Part shown: positions 15,641-36,716 of the stretch, one piece after another
Position numbering within the stretch: position 1 is the stretch's first letter
Layout of the letters: each line of letters begins with the position of its first letter
Source of the DNA: Shigella phage ESh21
Length of the DNA stretch: 64,000 nt
Sequence record: ON528731
Direction: 5' to 3' (one strand)
Made by a program: the position numbers and the translations under genes
The notes under the pieces: generated by a model
The model's input: the letters and a program-made list of their open reading frames with translations, nothing else
The model's database searches: none
Told to the model about the DNA's origin: nothing

Positions 15641-16021
15641 TCAGATTACCTGTGTCACTTGCAGCGCTTCTGTTATAGAAATATCACCAACTTTCTCTTC
15701 TTTGATAAAGGTGAAGGTTAGTAAGGTATCTTGCAGTTCTTCTTCAAGTGGTACTCCGTTCAGTTCATCATAGATAGATTGGGTAGTCCAGCCTTCCTGA
15801 CCATCTGGGTAGTAAATGGCATATTTCGGGAAGTCAATACCACACCAACCAAAGACAGGACAACCATCTTCATCGTTATATCGGTGATGTAGGACACTAC
15901 CACTTTTCACAAAACGAAGTCGCAACTCACCGTTATGTTGGTACACAACTGCATTTGCTTCTTGCTCACCCATGTTTCCATGAGCAGAAACGTCAACAAT
16001 TACTGGAATCTCTTTATTCAT
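15641..16021 (-). CDS. Hypothetical protein
   Basis: Start placed at internal ATG (MNKEIPV) with GAGG SD; the longer ORF overlaps the upstream gene. Confidence 0.45.
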   Translation of the reverse strand: MNKEIPVIVDVSAHGNMGEQEANAVVYQHNGELRLRFVKSGSVLHHRYNDEDGCPVFGWCGIDFPKYAIYYPDGQEGWTTQSIYDELNGVPLEEELQDTLLTFTFIKEEKVGDISITEALQVTQVI

Positions 16022-16412
16022 AATAACCTCTCTCAGCTTTCTCAATCTTATCCAGAAGTTTATTGCACTGGTCGTTGTGGTAAATAGCCTCACGATTGTG
16101 CATTGCTTTCTGTTTCTCAAGTAGAGTTTTATAGTAACCTGATAACTGTGCTCTTGTCAAGGGGTGTTCTGAAATAATATCTAAAGAACTTTCACCGAGA
16201 GAGCAGAAAAGGCCATCATCGTTCACGTCATAAAGTTCGTTTGTGTAGAACCCTTTGTTAGCCATTGTGATAGGTGAACGCTCAACGACCTCGACAATAA
16301 ACTTGGTGACAACCTTACCTCCGTAAGTGATAAGTTTGCTTCCATAGACTCTGACCTTCATACCGCTTCTTGTGTACTTAAAAGTACCAACATCATCAGC
16401 CCAAAGTTTCAT
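16014..16412 (-). CDS. Hypothetical protein
   Basis: ORF in track. Confidence 0.5.
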   Translation of the reverse strand: MKLWADDVGTFKYTRSGMKVRVYGSKLITYGGKVVTKFIVEVVERSPITMANKGFYTNELYDVNDDGLFCSLGESSLDIISEHPLTRAQLSGYYKTLLEKQKAMHNREAIYHNDQCNKLLDKIEKAERGYYE

Positions 16413-16428: not shown

Positions 16429-16452
16429 TAAAAAAGGCTCCCGAAGGAGCCT
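16429..16452 (-). terminator. Rho-independent terminator downstream of endolysin gene
   Basis: GGCTCC-TTCG-GGAGCC hairpin with T-run on minus strand. Confidence 0.65.
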
Positions 16453-16461
16453 ATGAATATA

Positions 16462-16926
16462 TTACTTTGGATATACCGCGTCAAGATAAATCTTCGCTTC
16501 CATTCTACGTCTGTTTGTCAGACCTTTAGAAGCAACTTTCTTACCGTTGATGGTTACCTTATTCCACCACTGCATAGCTTCTGCACAGCCAACTTTGTTA
16601 CCAGCATTGTGACGCCTCATGAAGGTTGATTCCTTCATAGCCCCAATACCGATGTTGTAGGTTTCAATAACCAGTGCGTCAAATTCATTCTGGGTAGTTG
16701 GAGCACTGATAGCTTTGTTCACAGCTACTACAAACTTCTCAACATCAGCAAGTAGATAACTGTTAGCTTGGGCTTCATTGATTTTCATACCCATCTTGAC
16801 AGGTTGACCATTGATACGGATTGTACCATAACCAATTGTAGGAATACCAGCAGAGTCTTTGTAGGCTTCTAAACGAAGCCCCTCAAAGAACTTGATAGCT
16901 TCCAATCCTTGAGGGGATAATTGCAT
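16462..16926 (-). CDS. Endolysin, T4 lysozyme-like (glycoside hydrolase family 24)
   Basis: FEGLRLEAYKDSAGIPTIGYGT matches the T4 lysozyme catalytic motif [21 protein letters not shown]. Confidence 0.9.
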   Translation of the reverse strand: MQLSPQGLEAIKFFEGLRLEAYKDSAGIPTIGYGTIRINGQPVKMGMKINEAQANSYLLADVEKFVVAVNKAISAPTTQNEFDALVIETYNIGIGAMKESTFMRRHNAGNKVGCAEAMQWWNKVTINGKKVASKGLTNRRRMEAKIYLDAVYPK

Positions 16927-16928
16927 TT

Positions 16929-17813
16929 TTAACCTCCTACTACGTTAACCACTACAGTAGCTGGGTTTGAAGTAACACTTCCACCTGCTCCAGTAACTAC
17001 ACATACATAACTTCCTGCATCACCAGCAGTCGTAGTATTCTCTTTGGTGTAGGTTGCTGCTGTAGCACCAGAGATTTCTACATTATCTTTCTTCCACTGG
17101 TAACCTGTAGCTCCGGTTGCAACAATATCAAGAGTCAGTGTGTCACCTTCAGTGATTTCTTGGTTTGCTGGCTGTTTAGTGATTACTGGAAGTGCATTCA
17201 CAGTAACTGTTGCAGCATCTGAAGTGACAGTTGCACCACCATCACCAGTAACTACACAGGTGTAAGACCCAGCATCAGCAGGGGTTACGTTTGTTTTAGT
17301 GTATGTTGCAGAAGTTGCACCAGAGATGTTAGAAGCACCCTTCTTCCACTGGTAACCAGTTGCATTTGTAGCAACAACTGTCAAGGTTAGAGTACCACCC
17401 TCATTAACAGTTTGGTTAGTTGGCTGCGTGGTGATAGCTGGTGGCACAACTGCATCAATCAGTTTAGCATTCAGCATTGAGAAAGGTTTAACCCTTGCAA
17501 GCCATTCACAGTAAATAGTGTCAACATCTTTACCGTTGATGATTGCATACTGCAAATCCATGAAGAAGTCAGCAGTTCTCATTTGAGCACCTACAGAGTA
17601 TAGTAGTTCTTCAGAGAATGGAACTGTGTAGCTTGGGGTGTAGTTTAAATCGGTAACCTCAGCAATGTCTGACTCAGGCCACGGAGAGCTATATGTCAGT
17701 GGTAGCACAGCTTCTTGATACGTTCTGAAGTCGTATCTCTTACCAGCTTTAACATTCGCAATAAAAACCTTTACGAACTCTTTAAAATCTGGATATGTTT
17801 TTGCTTTAATCAT
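16929..17813 (-). CDS. Protein with two tandem Ig-like domains
   Basis: Two ~80-aa repeats (TLTLxVVATxATGYQWKK...AGSYxCVVTGxGG); N-terminal domain paralogous to 17810..18178. Confidence 0.6.
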   Translation of the reverse strand: MIKAKTYPDFKEFVKVFIANVKAGKRYDFRTYQEAVLPLTYSSPWPESDIAEVTDLNYTPSYTVPFSEELLYSVGAQMRTADFFMDLQYAIINGKDVDTIYCEWLARVKPFSMLNAKLIDAVVPPAITTQPTNQTVNEGGTLTLTVVATNATGYQWKKGASNISGATSATYTKTNVTPADAGSYTCVVTGDGGATVTSDAATVTVNALPVITKQPANQEITEGDTLTLDIVATGATGYQWKKDNVEISGATAATYTKENTTTAGDAGSYVCVVTGAGGSVTSNPATVVVNVVGG

Positions 17814-18178
17814 TTATTAGCCTCTAATCTTGCGTTTAGTCTGAAATAACCTTTGTGTTGAGGTGATACATCACCAACTACAACACCTTCAATCTTATAA
17901 CCCTTTCCCATTACATACTGAATGTCCATTAAGAATGTCCCTAGACCAACAATATGAAACATCGGATAAAGTAACTCTTCAGAATCTGGTAGGTCAGTTT
18001 TTGGGATGTATTTAACGGTAGCTGTAGTTGGGTTGATATCCTTCTCAGGCCATTTACTATCACGCCATGTTAAGGGTGTCGGAAGTACATCATCAAGATT
18101 ATACCTTTCACCTTCTTGAACACTTTGGACATAAGATTGTAGGAAGCAATAAAAGTCTTTTCTACTCTTTGCCTTCAT
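17810..18178 (-). CDS. Hypothetical protein, paralog of N-terminal domain of 16929..17813
   Basis: Shared pattern W..S.WPE.DI...SEELLY...FxMDxQY. Confidence 0.5.
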   Translation of the reverse strand: MKAKSRKDFYCFLQSYVQSVQEGERYNLDDVLPTPLTWRDSKWPEKDINPTTATVKYIPKTDLPDSEELLYPMFHIVGLGTFLMDIQYVMGKGYKIEGVVVGDVSPQHKGYFRLNARLEANK

Positions 18179-25079: not shown

Positions 25080-25110
25080 CTTCTAAGGGTTCTTACGAGA
25101 GTCCTTAAAT

Positions 25111-25187
25111 GTGGCCTTATCATAAATGGATAATGACCCATGCTGTGAACATGGTCTATACGGGTTCGATTCCCGTAGGTCACCCCA
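25111..25187 (+). tRNA. tRNA-His (anticodon GUG)
   Basis: Anticodon stem CCATG/CATGG, loop CTGTGAA, discriminator C; no encoded G-1. Confidence 0.65.
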
Positions 25188-25193
25188 ATTCAA

Positions 25194-25270
25194 TAGCTCA
25201 ATTAGCTTATATGGTTAAAGCGCGTGTCTGAAAAACATGAGAACAGGGTTCAAATCCCGATGGGCTACCA
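25194..25270 (+). tRNA. tRNA-Phe (anticodon GAA)
   Basis: Loop CTGAAAA; T-stem weak; 3' boundary uncertain. Confidence 0.5.
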
Positions 25271-25285
25271 ATTTATAGGTGCATA

Positions 25286-26020
25286 ATGAAAGAGATGACA
25301 GGACAAGGTAAAGAGATTTTCAGTCTCCTTAAATCCGGTAACGGGTTCTCTAACCCTCTTATTACTGGTGCAGCAGTTCTTGGTGGTACAGTTGCTGCTT
25401 CTCAGTCATTAGTAACTTCTATTGGTTCTGTATCAGACCCAGCTACCCAGCAAATTCTTATTGCTGCTGGCTTGACAACTGCCTTACTAAGCAGCTTTAC
25501 AACAAGCCTTGGTAGCACCACTTCAACGACAACTACTTTAACTGACTATGGACAGAAGTCTGTAGATGAGTTTTCACAACGTATGCAAGTAGCTAAAGGT
25601 TACTCTAACGTTATGGGAGCAGCAGGTGAACAAGTCGGTTGTACACCGTTTAGTGGAATCATGGGAGTTGCTACAGAGTACGGTAACAAAGCTATGGATT
25701 TGATTAATACATCCATAGACGCTGTAAATGGCGTTCTAAGCGATTTACAAGATGCGATTGATAAAGGACTAGACACTATCTCTGAACTCGCTACACAAGC
25801 TGTTACAGCGATTAATGAGGGTATGGCAAAGATTACTGCCTACGCTAATGAAGTGGCTCAGATGATTGCAGATGAAGCAGCCCTGATTGCTGACTACCTT
25901 AAAACGAATATTAACGGTTTTCTTGCTAATGTCTTACCAGATTGGTTTGATGATGCTTGTAAAACTGGTGTGATTGATACAATCGCAACTCCAGAGATGA
26001 AAGATGCTCTAAACAAATAA
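25286..26020 (+). CDS. Hypothetical protein with Ala/Gly/Ser/Thr-rich N-terminal half
   Basis: 244-aa ORF between tRNAs. Confidence 0.55.
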   Translation: MKEMTGQGKEIFSLLKSGNGFSNPLITGAAVLGGTVAASQSLVTSIGSVSDPATQQILIAAGLTTALLSSFTTSLGSTTSTTTTLTDYGQKSVDEFSQRMQVAKGYSNVMGAAGEQVGCTPFSGIMGVATEYGNKAMDLINTSIDAVNGVLSDLQDAIDKGLDTISELATQAVTAINEGMAKITAYANEVAQMIADEAALIADYLKTNINGFLANVLPDWFDDACKTGVIDTIATPEMKDALNK

Positions 26021-26023
26021 TTT

Positions 26024-26116
26024 GGAAGATTAACCCTAAAAGGTAAGGGAGCAGTTTGCTAAACTGCCAGTAACCGAGAAATCGGCGTACCAGTTCAAGT
26101 CTGGTATCTTCCTCCA
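26024..26116 (+). tRNA. tRNA-Ser (anticodon GCU), long variable arm
   Basis: Acceptor GGAAGAT/ATCTTCC perfect, anticodon stem GCAGT/ACTGC, 93 nt. Confidence 0.7.
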
Positions 26117-26123
26117 AATTAAT

Positions 26124-26200
26124 GTGTCGGTGGCAGAAATGGATTATGCGCCTGTCTGCAAAACAGGTATATAAGGGTTCAAGTCCCTTCCGATACTCCA
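26124..26200 (+). tRNA. tRNA-Cys (anticodon GCA)
   Basis: Anticodon stem CCTGT/ACAGG, loop CTGCAAA, T-arm AAGGG-TTCAAGT-CCCTT. Confidence 0.65.
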
Positions 26201-26648: not shown

Positions 26649-28250
26649 ATGGACTTAAATGTTATTAAGCAGAAGCGAGTGGAAGATGTAAGGAAAGTCC
26701 TAGCAGGTGAGTTGGGGCTTTCTGAAGAAGTAAAAGATATTATCAAATCCTTTGGTAAAGACCCCTCTAAATTCCTTCCAACTCAAATTCTGACTTTATT
26801 AAGATATACCCCAGACCAAGTAAGACTCATCTTTAAATTGATGACTGACAAGAACTATGTAGCTCCACAGCCTGGCTCTCAAGAGGTATTCTTGAATACC
26901 AATGCTGACTTGGTGTTATATGGTGGTGCTGCTGGTGCTGGTAAGACTGCTGCCCTTTTAATGGACTCTTTGAGATTCATTGATGACCCTAACTATAACG
27001 CTGTATATTTCCGTCGAAATACTACACAGTTACAAGGTGGTTTATGGCCAGCAGCTAAAAAGCTATTTGGTAAGTTTGGTGGAATCCCACACGAACAGAA
27101 AATGACTATTACGTTCCCTTCAGGAGCGACTATTAAGTTTACTTATTTGGAACTTGAAAAACACTCAGAAGGTCACCAAGGTATCGAATACTCAGCTATT
27201 TACTTCGACGAAGGTACACACTTCTCGGCTTCACAGATTTCATATCTTCAGACACGTTTGCGTTCTGGTGCTGAAGGTGACTCATATATGAAGATTTCCA
27301 TGAACCCAGATAGAGACCACTTTATTTACGATTGGGTAGAACCATTCCTAGATGAAGAAGGTTATCCAGACCCGTCTAAATGCGGTAGGATTCGTTGGTA
27401 TGTTATGAGTGATGGTGTAATGGTTTCTGATTGGGACAAGAATAAGATTCTTGAAATGTTCCCTCTAGAGATTCCTCAAACATATACCTTTATTTCTGGT
27501 ACGATTGATGACAACCCAATTCTTGATTTCTTAGAACCTAAGTATCGTGGTAAATTGGAAAATAACACACCAGTTAACGTTGCTCGTCTTCGTTTTGGTA
27601 ACTGGAAAGCTCGTGCAGAAGGTTCAAACTATTGGCAAAGACAATGGTGTGAGATTGTTGATAGTGTTCCAGCAGACGTATTTGATGTTCGTGCTTGGGA
27701 CTTAGCAGCAACATTACCCTCAGAAGTTAACCCTAATCCTGACTGGACAGCAGGTGTGAAAATGGGTAAATCTAAAAAAGATGGTTGCTATTATGTAATT
27801 AACGTAGTAAGATTTAGAGATAGACCTTCTGGAGTTGAAACACAAATTAATATGACTGCTGAAGGTGATGGTAAACGTACTGGTATTTTTATCCCACAAG
27901 ACCCAGGCGCTGCTGGTAAATCCTACGCAACATCTCTTATTAGAAAACTTGCTGAGAAAGGCTATAGAGCAAGAGCTAAACCTACCAATAAAGATAAAGT
28001 TACCCGTTTTGCGGGTTTCTCTGCTGCTTCAGAAGCTGGTCTTGTTAAAATTGTTAGAGGCTCTTGGAATGAAGCTTATTTCCAAGAACTAGAAGGTTTT
28101 TGTGGTGATGGTCGTACTAAGGATGACCAAGTGGATGCTACCAGTGATGCTTTCAACAGTCTTAATGAAGTTAAACTATTCAAGCCACCTTCAATGGGTA
28201 CTCATACAGATATTGTAAGAAGTAATCCATACGAAGGGCTGAGATTCTAA
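26649..28250 (+). CDS. terL: Terminase large subunit
   Basis: Walker A-like GGAAGAGKT; ~530 aa; followed by portal; start set to ATG 26649 with GAGG SD. Confidence 0.8.
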   Translation: MDLNVIKQKRVEDVRKVLAGELGLSEEVKDIIKSFGKDPSKFLPTQILTLLRYTPDQVRLIFKLMTDKNYVAPQPGSQEVFLNTNADLVLYGGAAGAGKTAALLMDSLRFIDDPNYNAVYFRRNTTQLQGGLWPAAKKLFGKFGGIPHEQKMTITFPSGATIKFTYLELEKHSEGHQGIEYSAIYFDEGTHFSASQISYLQTRLRSGAEGDSYMKISMNPDRDHFIYDWVEPFLDEEGYPDPSKCGRIRWYVMSDGVMVSDWDKNKILEMFPLEIPQTYTFISGTIDDNPILDFLEPKYRGKLENNTPVNVARLRFGNWKARAEGSNYWQRQWCEIVDSVPADVFDVRAWDLAATLPSEVNPNPDWTAGVKMGKSKKDGCYYVINVVRFRDRPSGVETQINMTAEGDGKRTGIFIPQDPGAAGKSYATSLIRKLAEKGYRARAKPTNKDKVTRFAGFSAASEAGLVKIVRGSWNEAYFQELEGFCGDGRTKDDQVDATSDAFNSLNEVKLFKPPSMGTHTDIVRSNPYEGLRF

Positions 28251-28262
28251 TAGGTAGAAAGA

Positions 28263-29729
28263 ATGGCAGATATCACAGAAACACAAGAAAGCCTTCCTCC
28301 ATTCAGAATGGGTGAGGTTGGGAGTCTTGGCCTTAAAGTTCGTTCAGGAAGAATCTATGAAGAACCTAGACAGGCTTTAAGATTCCCAGAAAGTATTAAG
28401 ACTTTCCAACTTATGATGCGAGACCCAGCAGTAGCTGCATCTGTGAACATTATTAAAATGTTTGTCAGAAAGGTTAACTGGAGATTCGTACCACCGAAGG
28501 GTAAAGAGAAAGATGCGAAGCTAATTGAAAGAGCAGAGTTCTTCAACTCATTAATGAATGACATGGAGCATGATTGGGCTGACTTTATTAACTCTGTTAT
28601 GTCATTCTGTACTTATGGCTTCTGCGTAAATGAAAAGGTTTATAAGAAACGTCAAGGTAAGAAAGGTAAATATCCTTCCAAGTACAATGATGGTTTAATT
28701 GGTTGGGCTAAGTTACCAATCAGAAATCAGTCAACACTGGATAAGTGGTATTTTGATGCTGACTACAGAAAAGTTACTGGAGTTAGACAGAACCTGAGAA
28801 ATGTCTCTTATATTACTGGTGCAATCAATCTTGCAGAACAACCATTGACAAGAAAACTCCCTAGAAGTAAATTCTTGCTATTCAAGTATGATGATGAATA
28901 TGGAAACCCAGAGGGACGTTCACCACTCCTTAATGCTTATGTACCTTGGAAATATAAGGTTCAGATTGAAGAGTATGAAGCAGTTGGTGTATCAAGAGAC
29001 TTAGTGGGTATGCCTAAGATTGGTCTTCCACCAGATTATCTGGATGAGAATGCAGAACCTGAAAAGAAAGCTTTCGTGAAGTATTGCAAAGATATCGTGA
29101 ATGATTTAATTGCAAATGATAGAGCAGGTATTATCTGGCCTAGATTTATCGACCCAGAAACTAAAGAAGATATCTTTGAGTTCTCATTAGTTTCTAGACA
29201 GGGTGCTAAGGCTTATGATACAGGTTCAATCATTGACAGATATTCTAAGCAGATTATGATGGCCTTTATGTCAGATGTTCTTGCTATGGGACAATCAAAA
29301 TATGGTTCATTCTCTTTGGCAGACTCTAAGACAAGCTTGTTAGCAATGTCTGTAGATATTCTTCTGAAGCAAATCAAGAACGTTATTAACCGTGACCTAG
29401 TAGCACAGACTTACGCTCTGAATATGTGGGATGACGAAGAACACGTTGAGATTGTTTATGATGATATTGAAACTCCAGACCTAGAAGCTATTGGTGCTTA
29501 TATTCAGAAGACCGTTGCAGTTGGGGCTATGGAAGTTGATAAGCCATTGTCTGATAAGTTAAGAGAACATATTGGTTTACCACCTGCTGATTCATCTAAA
29601 CCTGTATCTGAAGAATTATCTCCTAACACTCAAAGTCGTTCTGGAGATGGTTATAAGACTGCTGGAGAGGGAACTGCTAAGACTCCTTCAGCAAAAGACC
29701 CAAGTACAGCTAACAAGGCAAACAAATAA
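28263..29729 (+). CDS. Portal protein (putative)
   Basis: ~490-aa ORF immediately after terminase; acidic C-terminus. Confidence 0.6.
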   Translation: MADITETQESLPPFRMGEVGSLGLKVRSGRIYEEPRQALRFPESIKTFQLMMRDPAVAASVNIIKMFVRKVNWRFVPPKGKEKDAKLIERAEFFNSLMNDMEHDWADFINSVMSFCTYGFCVNEKVYKKRQGKKGKYPSKYNDGLIGWAKLPIRNQSTLDKWYFDADYRKVTGVRQNLRNVSYITGAINLAEQPLTRKLPRSKFLLFKYDDEYGNPEGRSPLLNAYVPWKYKVQIEEYEAVGVSRDLVGMPKIGLPPDYLDENAEPEKKAFVKYCKDIVNDLIANDRAGIIWPRFIDPETKEDIFEFSLVSRQGAKAYDTGSIIDRYSKQIMMAFMSDVLAMGQSKYGSFSLADSKTSLLAMSVDILLKQIKNVINRDLVAQTYALNMWDDEEHVEIVYDDIETPDLEAIGAYIQKTVAVGAMEVDKPLSDKLREHIGLPPADSSKPVSEELSPNTQSRSGDGYKTAGEGTAKTPSAKDPSTANKANK

Positions 29730-31922: not shown

Positions 31923-32300
31923 ATGGCATATCAAGGTTTTACTAAATTAGGTGAAAGAGAACCTCTGAATGATATCATTCTATGGGAACAGATTACACCA
32001 ACTGGTCACTCTCGTAAAGAGTATGCTCCTGTAGCCAGCACAGAATACCGTGTAGGTGAAGTTCTGAAAGCTGACGGCTCTAAAGTAGCTGCTGGTCAAG
32101 AAGCTCAGGCTGACTCTGTTTGTATCGTAAACTTCTATGCAGACCTGCAACTGTCTTACCACGGTCAGTTGAAAGTTGTTGGCATTTACCGTGACGCTGA
32201 ACTGAAGGACATGCTTACACTGGAAGACAGTGTTGATGCTGCTGCTGTTAAGTCTGCCCTGAAAGCAAAAGGTATTGATTTCGTACCAACTGGCCTGTAA
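31923..32300 (+). CDS. Hypothetical head protein (possible decoration protein)
   Basis: Position between protease and capsid genes. Confidence 0.4.
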   Translation: MAYQGFTKLGEREPLNDIILWEQITPTGHSRKEYAPVASTEYRVGEVLKADGSKVAAGQEAQADSVCIVNFYADLQLSYHGQLKVVGIYRDAELKDMLTLEDSVDAAAVKSALKAKGIDFVPTGL

Positions 32301-32331: not shown

Positions 32332-33438
32332 ATGGCATTAACTAATTCTGAAAAAAGCAGATTTTTCCTTGCTGACCTGACTGGTGAAGTCCAGTCTATC
32401 CCAAATACTTACGGTTATATTTCCGGTTTGGGACTGTTCCGTTCTGCTCCACAGACTCAAACTACTTTCCTGATGGACTTGACAGATTGGGATATCAGCT
32501 TGCTTGACGCTGTAGACCGCACTAGCCGTAAAGCTGAAACAAGTGCTCCTGAACGTGTTAAGCAGATTAGCTTCCCAATGATGTACTTCAAGGAAGTTGA
32601 AAGCATCACTCCTGACGAAATTCAGGGTGTACGTCAGCCAGGCACTGCAAATGAACTGACTACTGAAGCAGTTGTACGTGCTAAGAAGCTGATGAAGATT
32701 CGTACCAAGTTCGATATTACTCGTGAGTTCTTGTTCATGCAAGCCCTGAAGGGTAAAGTAATTGACGCTAACGGTGTTCTGTACGCAGACCTGTACAAGC
32801 AGTTCGATGTAACTAAGAAGACTATCTACTTCGACCTTGACAACCCGAACTCTGATATCGATGCGCACATTGAAGACCTGCGTATGCACATGGAAGACGA
32901 AGCTAAGACAGGTACTGTAATTAACGGTGAAGAAATTCACATCGTTGTTGACAGAACTTTCTTCAGCAAACTTACCAAGCATCCGAAGATTCGTGACGCA
33001 TATCTTGCACAGCAGACTCCTCTTGCTTGGCAGCAGATTACTGGTTCTCTAAGAACTGGTGGTTCTGATGGTGTTCAGGCTCATATGAACACATTCTACT
33101 ACGGTGGTGTTAAGTTTGTCCAGTACAACGGTAAGTTCAAAGACAAGCGTAACAAGACTCACACTCTGGTGAGCATTGACGGTGTGTCCGATGTTAATAT
33201 CGGTGTAGGTCACGCTTTCCCTAACGTTGCAATGCTGGGTGAAGCAAACAACATCTTTGAAGTGGCTTATGCTCCATGTCCTAAGATGGGTTACGCAAAC
33301 ACTCTTGGTCAGGAACTGTACGTATTCGAATATGAAAAAGACCGTGACGAAGGTATTGACTTCGAAGCTCACTCTTACATGCTTCCATACTGCACACGTC
33401 CTCAGTTACTGGTTGACGTTCGTTCAGATGCTGCTTAA
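32332..33438 (+). CDS. Major capsid protein, lambda gpE-like (putative)
   Basis: 368-aa ORF after protease-scaffold with GGAG SD; C-terminal pattern resembles lambda E. Confidence 0.65.
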   Translation: MALTNSEKSRFFLADLTGEVQSIPNTYGYISGLGLFRSAPQTQTTFLMDLTDWDISLLDAVDRTSRKAETSAPERVKQISFPMMYFKEVESITPDEIQGVRQPGTANELTTEAVVRAKKLMKIRTKFDITREFLFMQALKGKVIDANGVLYADLYKQFDVTKKTIYFDLDNPNSDIDAHIEDLRMHMEDEAKTGTVINGEEIHIVVDRTFFSKLTKHPKIRDAYLAQQTPLAWQQITGSLRTGGSDGVQAHMNTFYYGGVKFVQYNGKFKDKRNKTHTLVSIDGVSDVNIGVGHAFPNVAMLGEANNIFEVAYAPCPKMGYANTLGQELYVFEYEKDRDEGIDFEAHSYMLPYCTRPQLLVDVRSDAA

Positions 33439-35363: not shown

Positions 35364-36716
35364 ATGTGGAATCCAATTGTTAATGTAGATATTACATTGA
35401 ACACAGCAGGGACTACAAGAGAAGGTTTTGGTTTACCATTATTCCTTGCTTCAACAGATAACTTTGAAGAAAGAATCCGTGGTTATACTTCATTAACAGA
35501 AGTGGCTGAAGACTTTGATGAAAGTACTGCTGCATATAAAGCTGCAAAACAGCTATGGAGCCAAACTCCAAAAGTAACTCAACTGTATATTGGTAGAAGA
35601 ACTATGCAATATACAGTTTCTATTCCTGATACAGTTGCTGAAGGAAGTGAATATTCATTAACAGTTGCTATTGGTGGTGGTGTTTCTCAGCCATTCCAAT
35701 ACACTGCAAAAGAAAGTGACACAGCACTTATTGTCTTGAGTGAGTTTAAATCACAGATTGAAGCAAGCCCAACAATTAAAAATAGTGTGAATGTTAGTGT
35801 AACAGGTACTGGTGCTTCTGCGACGATGATTATTACTAAAGCTGGTGATAATGATTTCGTAAAAGTAACATCTATCACGGCTACAACATCTATTGCAGCT
35901 ACAACTGCTGACACAGCTTCCGCTGCTCTGGCGTCCATCGAAACTTATTCAACAGATTGGTACTTCATCTCAGCAGAAGACAGAACTCAACAGTTTGTCT
36001 TGGCAATGGCTTCAGAGATTCAGGCTCGTAAGAAGATTTTCTTCACAGCTAATGCTGACGTTAAAGCTTTGCAAGGAACTGAATTAACCTCTGCAACCGA
36101 TGTTCCGGCACAGTTAGCTAAAAATAGGTACACTCGTACAGTTTGCTTGTGGCATCACACATCTGAGTATGACTACCCAGAAATGGCTTACATCGCATAT
36201 GGAGCACCATATGATGCAGGTTCAATTGCTTGGGGTAATGCTCAATTAACTGGTGTTGCAGCATCTCTACAACCTGCTAACCGTAGACCACTGACAAGTA
36301 TTCAGAAGTCAGCTTTGGATACTCGTAACTGTAACTTCATTGACCTTGATGGTGGAGTTCCTGTAGTGCGTAGGGGTATCACTTCTGGTGGTGAATGGAT
36401 TGATATTGTACGTGGTGTTGATTGGCTTGAATCTGATTTGAAAACATCTCTAAGAGACTTGCTAATTAACCAGAAGGGTGGTAAGATTACTTATGATGAT
36501 ACTGGTATTACCCGTATTCGTCAAGTCATTGAAACCTCTCTACAAAGAGCAGTTAACAGAAACTTCCTGTCATCTTACACAGTTAATGTTCCTAAAGCCT
36601 CTCAAGTTGCTTTGGCAGATAAGAAAGCTCGTATCCTGAAAGATGTTACCTTCGCAGGTATCTTAGCAGGGGCTATCTTGGATGTTGACTTGAAAGGTAC
36701 AGTGGCTTACGAATAA
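35364..36716 (+). CDS. Tail sheath protein (putative)
   Basis: 450-aa ORF immediately upstream of tube, chaperone pair and tape measure. Confidence 0.55.
   Translation: MWNPIVNVDITLNTAGTTREGFGLPLFLASTDNFEERIRGYTSLTEVAEDFDESTAAYKAAKQLWSQTPKVTQLYIGRRTMQYTVSIPDTVAEGSEYSLTVAIGGGVSQPFQYTAKESDTALIVLSEFKSQIEASPTIKNSVNVSVTGTGASATMIITKAGDNDFVKVTSITATTSIAATTADTASAALASIETYSTDWYFISAEDRTQQFVLAMASEIQARKKIFFTANADVKALQGTELTSATDVPAQLAKNRYTRTVCLWHHTSEYDYPEMAYIAYGAPYDAGSIAWGNAQLTGVAASLQPANRRPLTSIQKSALDTRNCNFIDLDGGVPVVRRGITSGGEWIDIVRGVDWLESDLKTSLRDLLINQKGGKITYDDTGITRIRQVIETSLQRAVNRNFLSSYTVNVPKASQVALADKKARILKDVTFAGILAGAILDVDLKGTVAYE

Follow-up and report, generated by a model that had tools for sequence, protein, structure and literature searches.

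A capsid-binding-domain paralog next to a Hoc-like capsid decoration gene in the endolysin unit of Shigella phage ESh21

Layout of the locus

The stretch of DNA analysed here (the window) comprises 64,000 nucleotides of Shigella phage ESh21 (sequence record ON528731), a Mooglevirus-like Felix O1-type myophage. This work deals with a gene adjoining the endolysin, whose product carries immunoglobulin (Ig)-like domains, and with a short paralog of its N-terminal domain encoded just upstream. Over this locus the window shares 98% identity with Shigella phage ESh22; for the Moogleviruses Sf13, Sf17 and KPS64 the figure is about 84%, and for Felix O1 about 77%. Three closely packed open reading frames (ORFs) lie on the minus strand, at 17810-18178 (122 amino acids, aa), 16929-17813 (294 aa) and 16462-16926 (154 aa). 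The features of the locus are listed below in the direction of transcription, the N-terminal capsid-binding domain being abbreviated CapBD and the Ig-domain protein being named Hex-Dec after its ortholog in phage Bas63.

18202..18215, minus strand: intrinsic-terminator-like hairpin, GGGGCGAAAGCCCC plus a T-run, between a 196-aa ORF and the paralog
17810..18178, minus strand: CapBD-only paralog, 122 aa, phrog_4463; orthologs Sf14 gp21, Felix O1 ORF37 and bas63_0125
17810..17813, minus strand: ATGA overlap of the paralog stop and the Hex-Dec start, predicted translational coupling
16929..17813, minus strand: predicted Hex-Dec, a Hoc-like hexamer-centre decoration protein, 294 aa; orthologs Sf14 gp20, Bas63 Hex-Dec and Felix O1 gp36
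17460..17813, minus strand: CapBD, residues 1-118, with Arg79 and Arg107, from alignment to the Sf14 and Bas63 chains
17199..17450, minus strand: Ig-like domain 1, residues 122-205 (Pfam Ig_3, Ig_2, I-set)
16941..17198, minus strand: Ig-like domain 2, residues 206-291 (Pfam Ig_2, I-set at 209-289)
16462..16926, minus strand: GH24 endolysin, 154 aa (PF00959, 5e-39; phrog_7)
16435..16452, minus strand: intrinsic-terminator-like hairpin closing the three-gene unit, from the sequence

The two hairpins (18215-18202 and 16452-16435) enclose exactly the paralog, Hex-Dec and the endolysin. Their equivalents in Felix O1 are the terminators t38 (upstream) and t35 (closing), and both have annotated terminator counterparts in Mijalis. 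Approximately 14 nt separate the T-run of the upstream hairpin from the paralog ATG; this interval contains a ribosome-binding site, AAGGA, and leaves no room for the sigma-70 promoter that was sought between the terminator and the paralog. In the region as a whole, 8 promoter-like matches were found against 9.7 expected from shuffled sequences. The ATGA overlap between paralog and Hex-Dec is kept in six of the six cultured phages examined, Mijalis, KPS64, Felix O1, Bas63 and Sf14 among them, and is replaced by TAATG in the distant contig L010. The endolysin ATG begins 2 nt past the Hex-Dec stop, with its GGAGG ribosome-binding site inside the final Hex-Dec codons. A fusion of paralog and Hex-Dec by frameshift or readthrough was considered and excluded: TAA TAA stands just before the Hex-Dec ATG and there is no slippery heptamer.

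Identity of the Ig-domain protein

The first-pass annotation, made from the letters alone, had read 16929-17813 as an N-terminal domain followed by two tandem Ig-like repeats and had proposed a domain search as a check. Both the domains and the repeats are borne out: Pfam matches fall at approximately residues 124-189 and 209-289 (Ig_3 1.4e-19, Ig_2 8.8e-17, I-set 1.2e-12), and the first repeat (residues 122-205) shares 68% identity with the second (206-291; E 8e-33). The repetition is visible at the protein level only, Tandem Repeats Finder having scored no DNA-level tandem repeat for the Ig units. The NCBIfam search gave no match for Hex-Dec.

When the 294-aa protein was compared with PDB sequences by phmmer, it matched, from residue 1, chains of two phage capsids, 9ncf_S of Bas63 (5e-256) and 9c2d_S of Sf14 (3e-170); it also matches phrog_3995 (1e-161). 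Sf14 gp20 (9C2D chain S), Bas63 Hex-Dec (9NCF chain S) and Felix O1 gp36 are orthologous to it over both CapBD and Ig region, and the order paralog, Hex-Dec, endolysin is the same in all three phages. The sole difference lies in the number of Ig domains, which is two in the window, three in Sf14, four in Bas63 and one in FO1a, a variation that has already been documented.

The orthologs have been described in some detail. Cryo-electron microscopy (cryo-EM) of Sf14 shows monomeric gp20 sitting centrally in the pentamer-proximal (quasi-3-fold) hexamers of a T=9 capsid (PMC11821841), and the structures of both the Sf14 and Bas63 orthologs show 60 such hexamers carrying the Hoc-like monomer (PMC11821841, PMC12609058). 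Sf14 gp20 binds through an N-terminal helical domain of 118 aa, in which Arg79 and Arg107 bridge to Asp221 of the major capsid protein (MCP), and its Ig domains reach outward as in T4 Hoc; at the true 3-fold hexamers, Asp221 is displaced away from Arg79/Arg107 (PMC11821841). Bas63 Hex-Dec is likewise a CapBD followed by Ig domains, whose number ranges from 1 to 4 across species, and for hexamers without Hex-Dec no density is reported (PMC12609058). Sf14 gp20 was also found by mass spectrometry (MS) of virions.

The features on which this binding depends in Sf14 were looked for in the window. Arg79 and Arg107 are present in its Hex-Dec and in nine of the nine clade members aligned, and its MCP retains Asp221 in the context KHPKIRDAYLAQQ, identical to that of Sf14 gp34. 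The window protein has the features of the Hex-Dec family, namely CapBD homology, Arg79/Arg107 and, within the range of one to four C-terminal Ig domains, two. These comparisons show that the product of 16929-17813 belongs with the Hex-Dec/Hoc-like capsid decoration proteins, and it is predicted on that homology to decorate the virion. The Ig-domain protein is in this sense already known, the structures of its orthologs having been solved.

Most records would have it otherwise. phrog_3995 is labelled "tail protein", and GenBank entries read "tail protein", "major tail protein" or "tail fiber protein". The label traces to the Felix O1 proteome paper of 2010, in which gp36, adjoining lysin gp35, was seen in virions and named "major tail protein", which explains the wording in the databases. 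However, in two phages cryo-EM has located the ortholog on the capsid, at the centres of hexamers (PMC11821841, PMC12609058), and the authors of the Bas63 study call the usual tail annotation incorrect (PMC12609058). With PDB entries 9C2D and 9NCF, a tail protein or tail fibre is refuted, and we give this reading practically no weight.

The first-pass annotation had also suggested virion proteomics. Published data for the orthologs give opposite answers for the two proteins, with the long one detected and the paralog undetected, a point taken up below. In the same minus-strand non-structural block, Felix O1 encodes a second virion protein outside the morphogenesis module, gp23 (9.7 kDa, hypothetical), which was detected in Felix O1 virions and not in those of VpaE1.

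In some relatives, Hex-Dec is truncated or frameshifted just past CapBD. Shigella phage Z31 (L003, 2498-3070) has a 134-aa ORF and a 55-aa fragment, and its paralog is also missing; in P0052 the Hex-Dec gene leaves frame inside Ig1. These forms are either natural Ig-less variants or sequencing errors.

Comparison with other decoration proteins

T4 Hoc resembles Hex-Dec: it too is a non-essential monomer that sits in hexamer centres, and it joins a capsid-binding domain to an outward string of Ig-like domains. Because of this analogy, the outward Ig domains of Hex-Dec are likely to make particles adhere to surfaces or mucus, or to control how particles aggregate. The two differ in that the capsid-binding domain is C-terminal in Hoc and N-terminal in Hex-Dec, so that the order is reversed, and in that the Hex-Dec CapBD is larger, topologically distinct and pseudo-C2 symmetric (PMC12609058). 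Moreover, Hoc occupies all hexamers and Hex-Dec the pentamer-proximal ones only. PHROG matches of the 294-aa protein to "Hoc-like" families are confined to the Ig region, and CapBD gave no Hoc match in the PDB sequence search, in Foldseek against PDB or in BFVD; by these comparisons the window CapBD does not appear to be a Hoc-type C-terminal capsid-binding domain.

The window protein also matches, in its Ig region, the pb10 chains 5lxk_A and 8zvi_a of T5. Unlike Hex-Dec, pb10 has a single Ig domain, and no similarity to CapBD was detected in the PDB sequence search, Foldseek or BFVD. Closer to the window are proteins of deeper Ounavirinae that combine CapBD with Big_2, found in Erwinia phiEa21-4 and MM7 (gp008), Yersinia P778 (ORF016) and Pectobacterium Arno162 (orf65). 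They belong to the same CapBD family (hidden Markov model E 5e-8 to 2e-4) and are likewise encoded directly upstream of the endolysin; they differ in that the outward domain is Big_2 or another Ig type, the anchor residues vary, and there is no CapBD-only paralog.

Position and timing of expression

A decoration gene beside an endolysin had seemed puzzling in the first-pass annotation, since Ig-like domains usually decorate virions and these genes lie away from the structural block. The placement itself is as described: the GH24 gene adjoins, and the morphogenesis block is on the other strand, past an array of tRNA genes. The Ig gene is about 14.5 kb from the capsid gene, with the array between them:

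21465-26200, plus strand: array of 25 tRNA genes, lying between the decoration/endolysin unit and the terminase and head genes
26649-28244, plus strand: terminase, morphogenesis block
28263-29726, plus strand: portal, morphogenesis block
31923-32297, plus strand: beta-tulip Dec, morphogenesis block
32332..33438, plus strand: MCP (tblastn, 97.8% identity to Sf14 gp34)
35364-36713, plus strand: sheath, morphogenesis block

The implied anomaly does not hold, as the orthologs are virion capsid proteins by cryo-EM (Sf14, Bas63) and by MS (Felix O1, Sf14). The 2010 Felix O1 paper had already commented on the unusual location. The Ig gene adjoins the endolysin throughout the Ounavirinae lineages sampled (Felix O1, Bas63, Sf14, Mijalis and KPS64; an 87-kb metagenomic relative; Erwinia MM7, Yersinia P778 and Pectobacterium Arno162), and the terminator-bracketed unit in which the two sit is conserved throughout them. 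The location of Hex-Dec is an ancestral quirk of genome organisation and does not point to a lysis function.

Expression timing, another check that had been suggested, is available from reverse transcription PCR (RT-PCR) of Felix O1. ORF36 and ORF37, the orthologs of Hex-Dec and of the paralog, are both late, being maximal at 60 min together with the morphogenesis ORFs, whereas the lysin (ORF35) and ORF38 reach their maximum at 25 min. No relevant Felixounavirus transcriptome came up in a literature search, and the timing used here comes from the Felix O1 RT-PCR only.

These data bear on whether the two genes might be accessory to lysis, say as a module that binds the cell wall or surface and works with the endolysin. 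The close abutment to the endolysin gene within a terminator-bracketed unit would suit such a function; however, the orthologs are bound to capsids, the Felix O1 lysin peaks at 25 min and not at 60 min with ORFs 36 and 37, and holin and spanin are encoded elsewhere. We regard a role in lysis as having a negligible probability.

The paralog: fold and conservation

That 17810-18178 encodes a paralog of the N-terminal domain alone, as the first-pass annotation had proposed, is supported by alignment: end to end, the protein is 34% identical to residues 2-118 of Hex-Dec (BLASTP E 4e-16), and the PHROG cross-matches between phrog_4463 and phrog_3995, the families of paralog and Hex-Dec, are reciprocal. 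The protein ends after CapBD and has no Pfam match, hence no Ig domain; the NCBIfam search gave no match either. Its only matches among PDB sequences are 9ncf_S and 9c2d_S (E 5e-12 and 1e-8). An AlphaFold2 (AF2) model was obtained with a mean predicted local distance difference test score (pLDDT) of 72.8 and a predicted template modelling score (pTM) of 0.71. Foldseek with this model returned from PDB the two solved CapBDs only (9ncf_S and 9c2d_S, TM 0.67, probability 1.00) and from BFVD CapBD proteins of Ounavirinae only. In the predicted structure, the paralog is thus shown to keep the CapBD fold.

Outside this group of phages the domain was not encountered. A word-indexed protein search with the paralog retrieved close orthologs only, all at least 75% identical, and 13 clusters came back when 1.84 billion representative proteins were searched exhaustively by profile; as these 13 clusters are all that the exhaustive search gave, the domain is confined to the Felix O1-type/Ounavirinae phage group.

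Deeper Ounavirinae from Erwinia, Yersinia and Pectobacterium have the order ~190-aa ORF, CapBD+Ig gene, endolysin, without the paralog. The paralog is shown by these comparisons to be a tandem duplicate of CapBD alone, and its absence from the deeper lineages places the duplication in the ancestor of Felixounavirus, Mooglevirus and the uncultured lineage L010. Within the group it has also been lost. In mio and Z31, an apparent 190-bp intergenic region proves to be made up of the two ends of the paralog gene, ~70 nt from each, and the same internal deletion junction (~224 bp removed) is common to 19 records, whose hosts are E. coli, Salmonella and Shigella, which points to a single secondary loss in a successful, viable lineage. 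The paralog gene is dispensable and, as is often so with decoration proteins, accessory.

Loss in one viable lineage is what would be expected if the paralog were a decaying, functionless duplicate. Against this, the gene is intact in approximately 230 of 252 related phage records and is kept, with the same synteny, in a lineage of only 48% identity (the 87-kb metagenomic relative). The median Nei-Gojobori omega is 0.12 for the paralog, compared with 0.09 for the lysin and 0.04 for the Hex-Dec CapBD; there are long invariant stretches, the C-terminal half being nearly invariant. The ATGA coupling is conserved, and the Felix O1 ortholog is transcribed. Decay, contradicted by the selection analysis, is very improbable, and the paralog has the substitution pattern of a real gene under purifying selection.

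The paralog: lost anchors and absence from virions

The residues that hold CapBD to the capsid have not been kept. Arg79 is replaced by Gly (G78 of the paralog) in eight of the eight paralogs examined, and position 107 is Gln or His in the cultured genera, with Arg in the distant L010 copy only. Two further basic residues fixed in Hex-Dec are Tyr in the paralog (Y10 for K and Y94 for K). The paralog thus departs from Hex-Dec both in the capsid-anchoring Arg79/Arg107 and in the outward Ig-like domains.

The virion studies of the orthologs agree with this. The ORF37 product was not among the Felix O1 virion proteins in 2010, though proteins of 9.7-13.7 kDa were detected; in VpaE1 virions (2015) the paralog ortholog is not among the three extra proteins, an absence by inference; and gp21 is not listed in the Sf14 MS table. 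The paralog is named in neither of the cryo-EM papers, on Sf14 (PMC11821841) and on Bas63 (PMC12609058), and the other Felix O1-type phage literature consulted makes no statement on its function. The paralog is probably not a permanent virion component.

It could nevertheless be a second, Ig-less structural decoration protein, located on hexamers free of Hex-Dec (the 20 true 3-fold ones, or those near the portal) or sharing sites at low occupancy. The CapBD fold, the late expression and the strongly conserved C-terminal lobe would fit such a protein; Asp221 is shifted in Sf14's true 3-fold hexamers, so that an arginine-less copy could fit the different geometry, and icosahedral averaging would blur a monomer on the 3-fold axis. 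However, the protein is missing from the Felix O1 and VpaE1 virion proteomes, in which smaller or lower-copy proteins were found, and from the Sf14 MS table; Bas63 shows no reported density on other hexamers; and 19 natural records dispense with the gene. Taken together, this makes a structural role quite unlikely.

Loss of the anchors and absence from virions would also be expected of a paralog that had acquired a new function off the capsid, as a decoy or inhibitor against a host factor or defence system recognising CapBD, or as a regulator linked to lysis. Its faster evolution relative to CapBD (omega 0.12 versus 0.04) points the same way, as do its accessory, losable nature and its place beside the endolysin. 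Late expression with the morphogenesis genes and the conserved coupling to Hex-Dec fit a role in assembly better, and no motif or family match to another activity was found in Pfam or NCBIfam; PADLOC or anti-defence evidence was not found either, no search aimed at it having been made. We consider a function off the capsid rather unlikely.

A proposed role for the paralog

Taking into consideration that the paralog: (i) is expressed late, (ii) is non-structural and dispensable, (iii) keeps the docking fold, having lost the anchoring charges, and (iv) is coupled to Hex-Dec; we infer that it acts during assembly. The explanation that best accommodates the whole locus, to which we assign a probability of roughly 0.72, is that the long protein is Hex-Dec and the paralog an accessory, non-structural late protein working at the time of head assembly. 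The CapBD of Hex-Dec would dock as a monomer into the 60 pentamer-proximal hexamer centres of the T=9 capsid, where salt bridges from Arg79 and Arg107 to MCP Asp221 would hold it, and its two Ig domains would project as a short fibre. The paralog would be made in fixed proportion with Hex-Dec through translational coupling and would act late, during head assembly, on the partners of its parent. Docking into MCP hexamer centres is the only known activity of the CapBD fold; the paralog would most likely be a weak or transient binder of hexamer centres, or a partner of Hex-Dec, and would in this way modulate where or when the Hex-Dec fibre is loaded.

A more specific version may be put forward tentatively, with the odds against it. 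Here the paralog would be an unrecognised hexamer-centre factor of the assembly stage, an arginine-less copy that either pairs with Hex-Dec or transiently masks or occupies centres, whether in procapsid hexamers or in the 20 hexamers of the true 3-fold kind, and so sets the selective occupancy of 60 out of 80 hexamers. Its stronger form would make the paralog a third decoration protein, so far missed, carried by the true 3-fold hexamers.

Several points weigh against the assembly-time explanation. The confidence of the AF2 model is moderate (pLDDT 72.8), the alignment behind it being shallow, with 11 sequences. The negative virion MS results come from studies made in 2010 and 2015 on orthologs in phages other than ESh21. 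A 14-kDa protein of low copy number or loosely bound could be lost in CsCl banding, and icosahedral averaging would smear an asymmetric monomer on the true 3-fold axis. As the Felix O1 lysin peaks at 25 min and ORFs 36 and 37 at 60 min, the three genes may not be strictly co-transcribed. The mechanism proposed for the paralog is one that we infer throughout, and adhesion or aggregation control by the Ig domains of the Hex-Dec family is drawn from T4 Hoc by analogy.

Neighbouring genes and related records

Some further observations concern the surroundings of the locus. The 196-aa ORF at 18222-18812 on the minus strand (phrog_4034, whose label gives no function; Felix O1 ORF38) is the immediate upstream neighbour of the decoration gene throughout the Ounavirinae lineages examined, and is present in phages without the paralog as well (MM7 gp009, P778 ORF017, Arno162 orf66). 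Its omega is approximately 0.09; it has no match in Pfam or NCBIfam and does not appear in the virion lists. Directly upstream of the tRNA array, 19815-21299 on the plus strand encodes a 494-aa protein whose relatives are labelled vWA/DUF2828 or "RNA-binding protein" (Felix O1 ORF42, P778 ORF021); it looks like a Ro/TROVE-like protein adjoining tRNAs.

On the other side of the unit, 15641-16120 on the minus strand is a mechanical ORF of 159 aa opened from a TTG. The phrog_4348 match spans its residues 34-159 only, and relatives are annotated as a gene of 126-128 aa. The true start is probably the internal ATG (Met34), in which case the long overlap with the 132-aa gene at 16014-16412 disappears.

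Two database records also deserve mention. GU169904.1, "Staphylococcus phage SA1" (147 kb), holds the whole Felix O1-type locus at approximately 77% identity and is, because of this, probably a chimeric or contaminated assembly; OK283618.1, Listeria phage LPML1 (87 kb), matches the lysin.

Significance

The Ig gene matters mainly for annotation, as most records call a tail protein what is in fact a capsid decoration protein of solved structure. The unexplained part of the locus is the paralog, a point that the first-pass annotation had not flagged. This CapBD-only protein is an undescribed variant of the Hex-Dec family, and the question it raises is why a fibre-less, anchor-less copy of a docking domain should be kept under selection, coupled just upstream of the real one. 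The natural deletion strains (mio, SP116 and REP5-12) make this question directly testable. Should the paralog indeed govern the choice of hexamers for the Hoc-like fibre, it would exemplify a regulator dedicated to the occupancy of a decoration protein, and would be of interest for phage-display engineering with Felix O1-type capsids as well.

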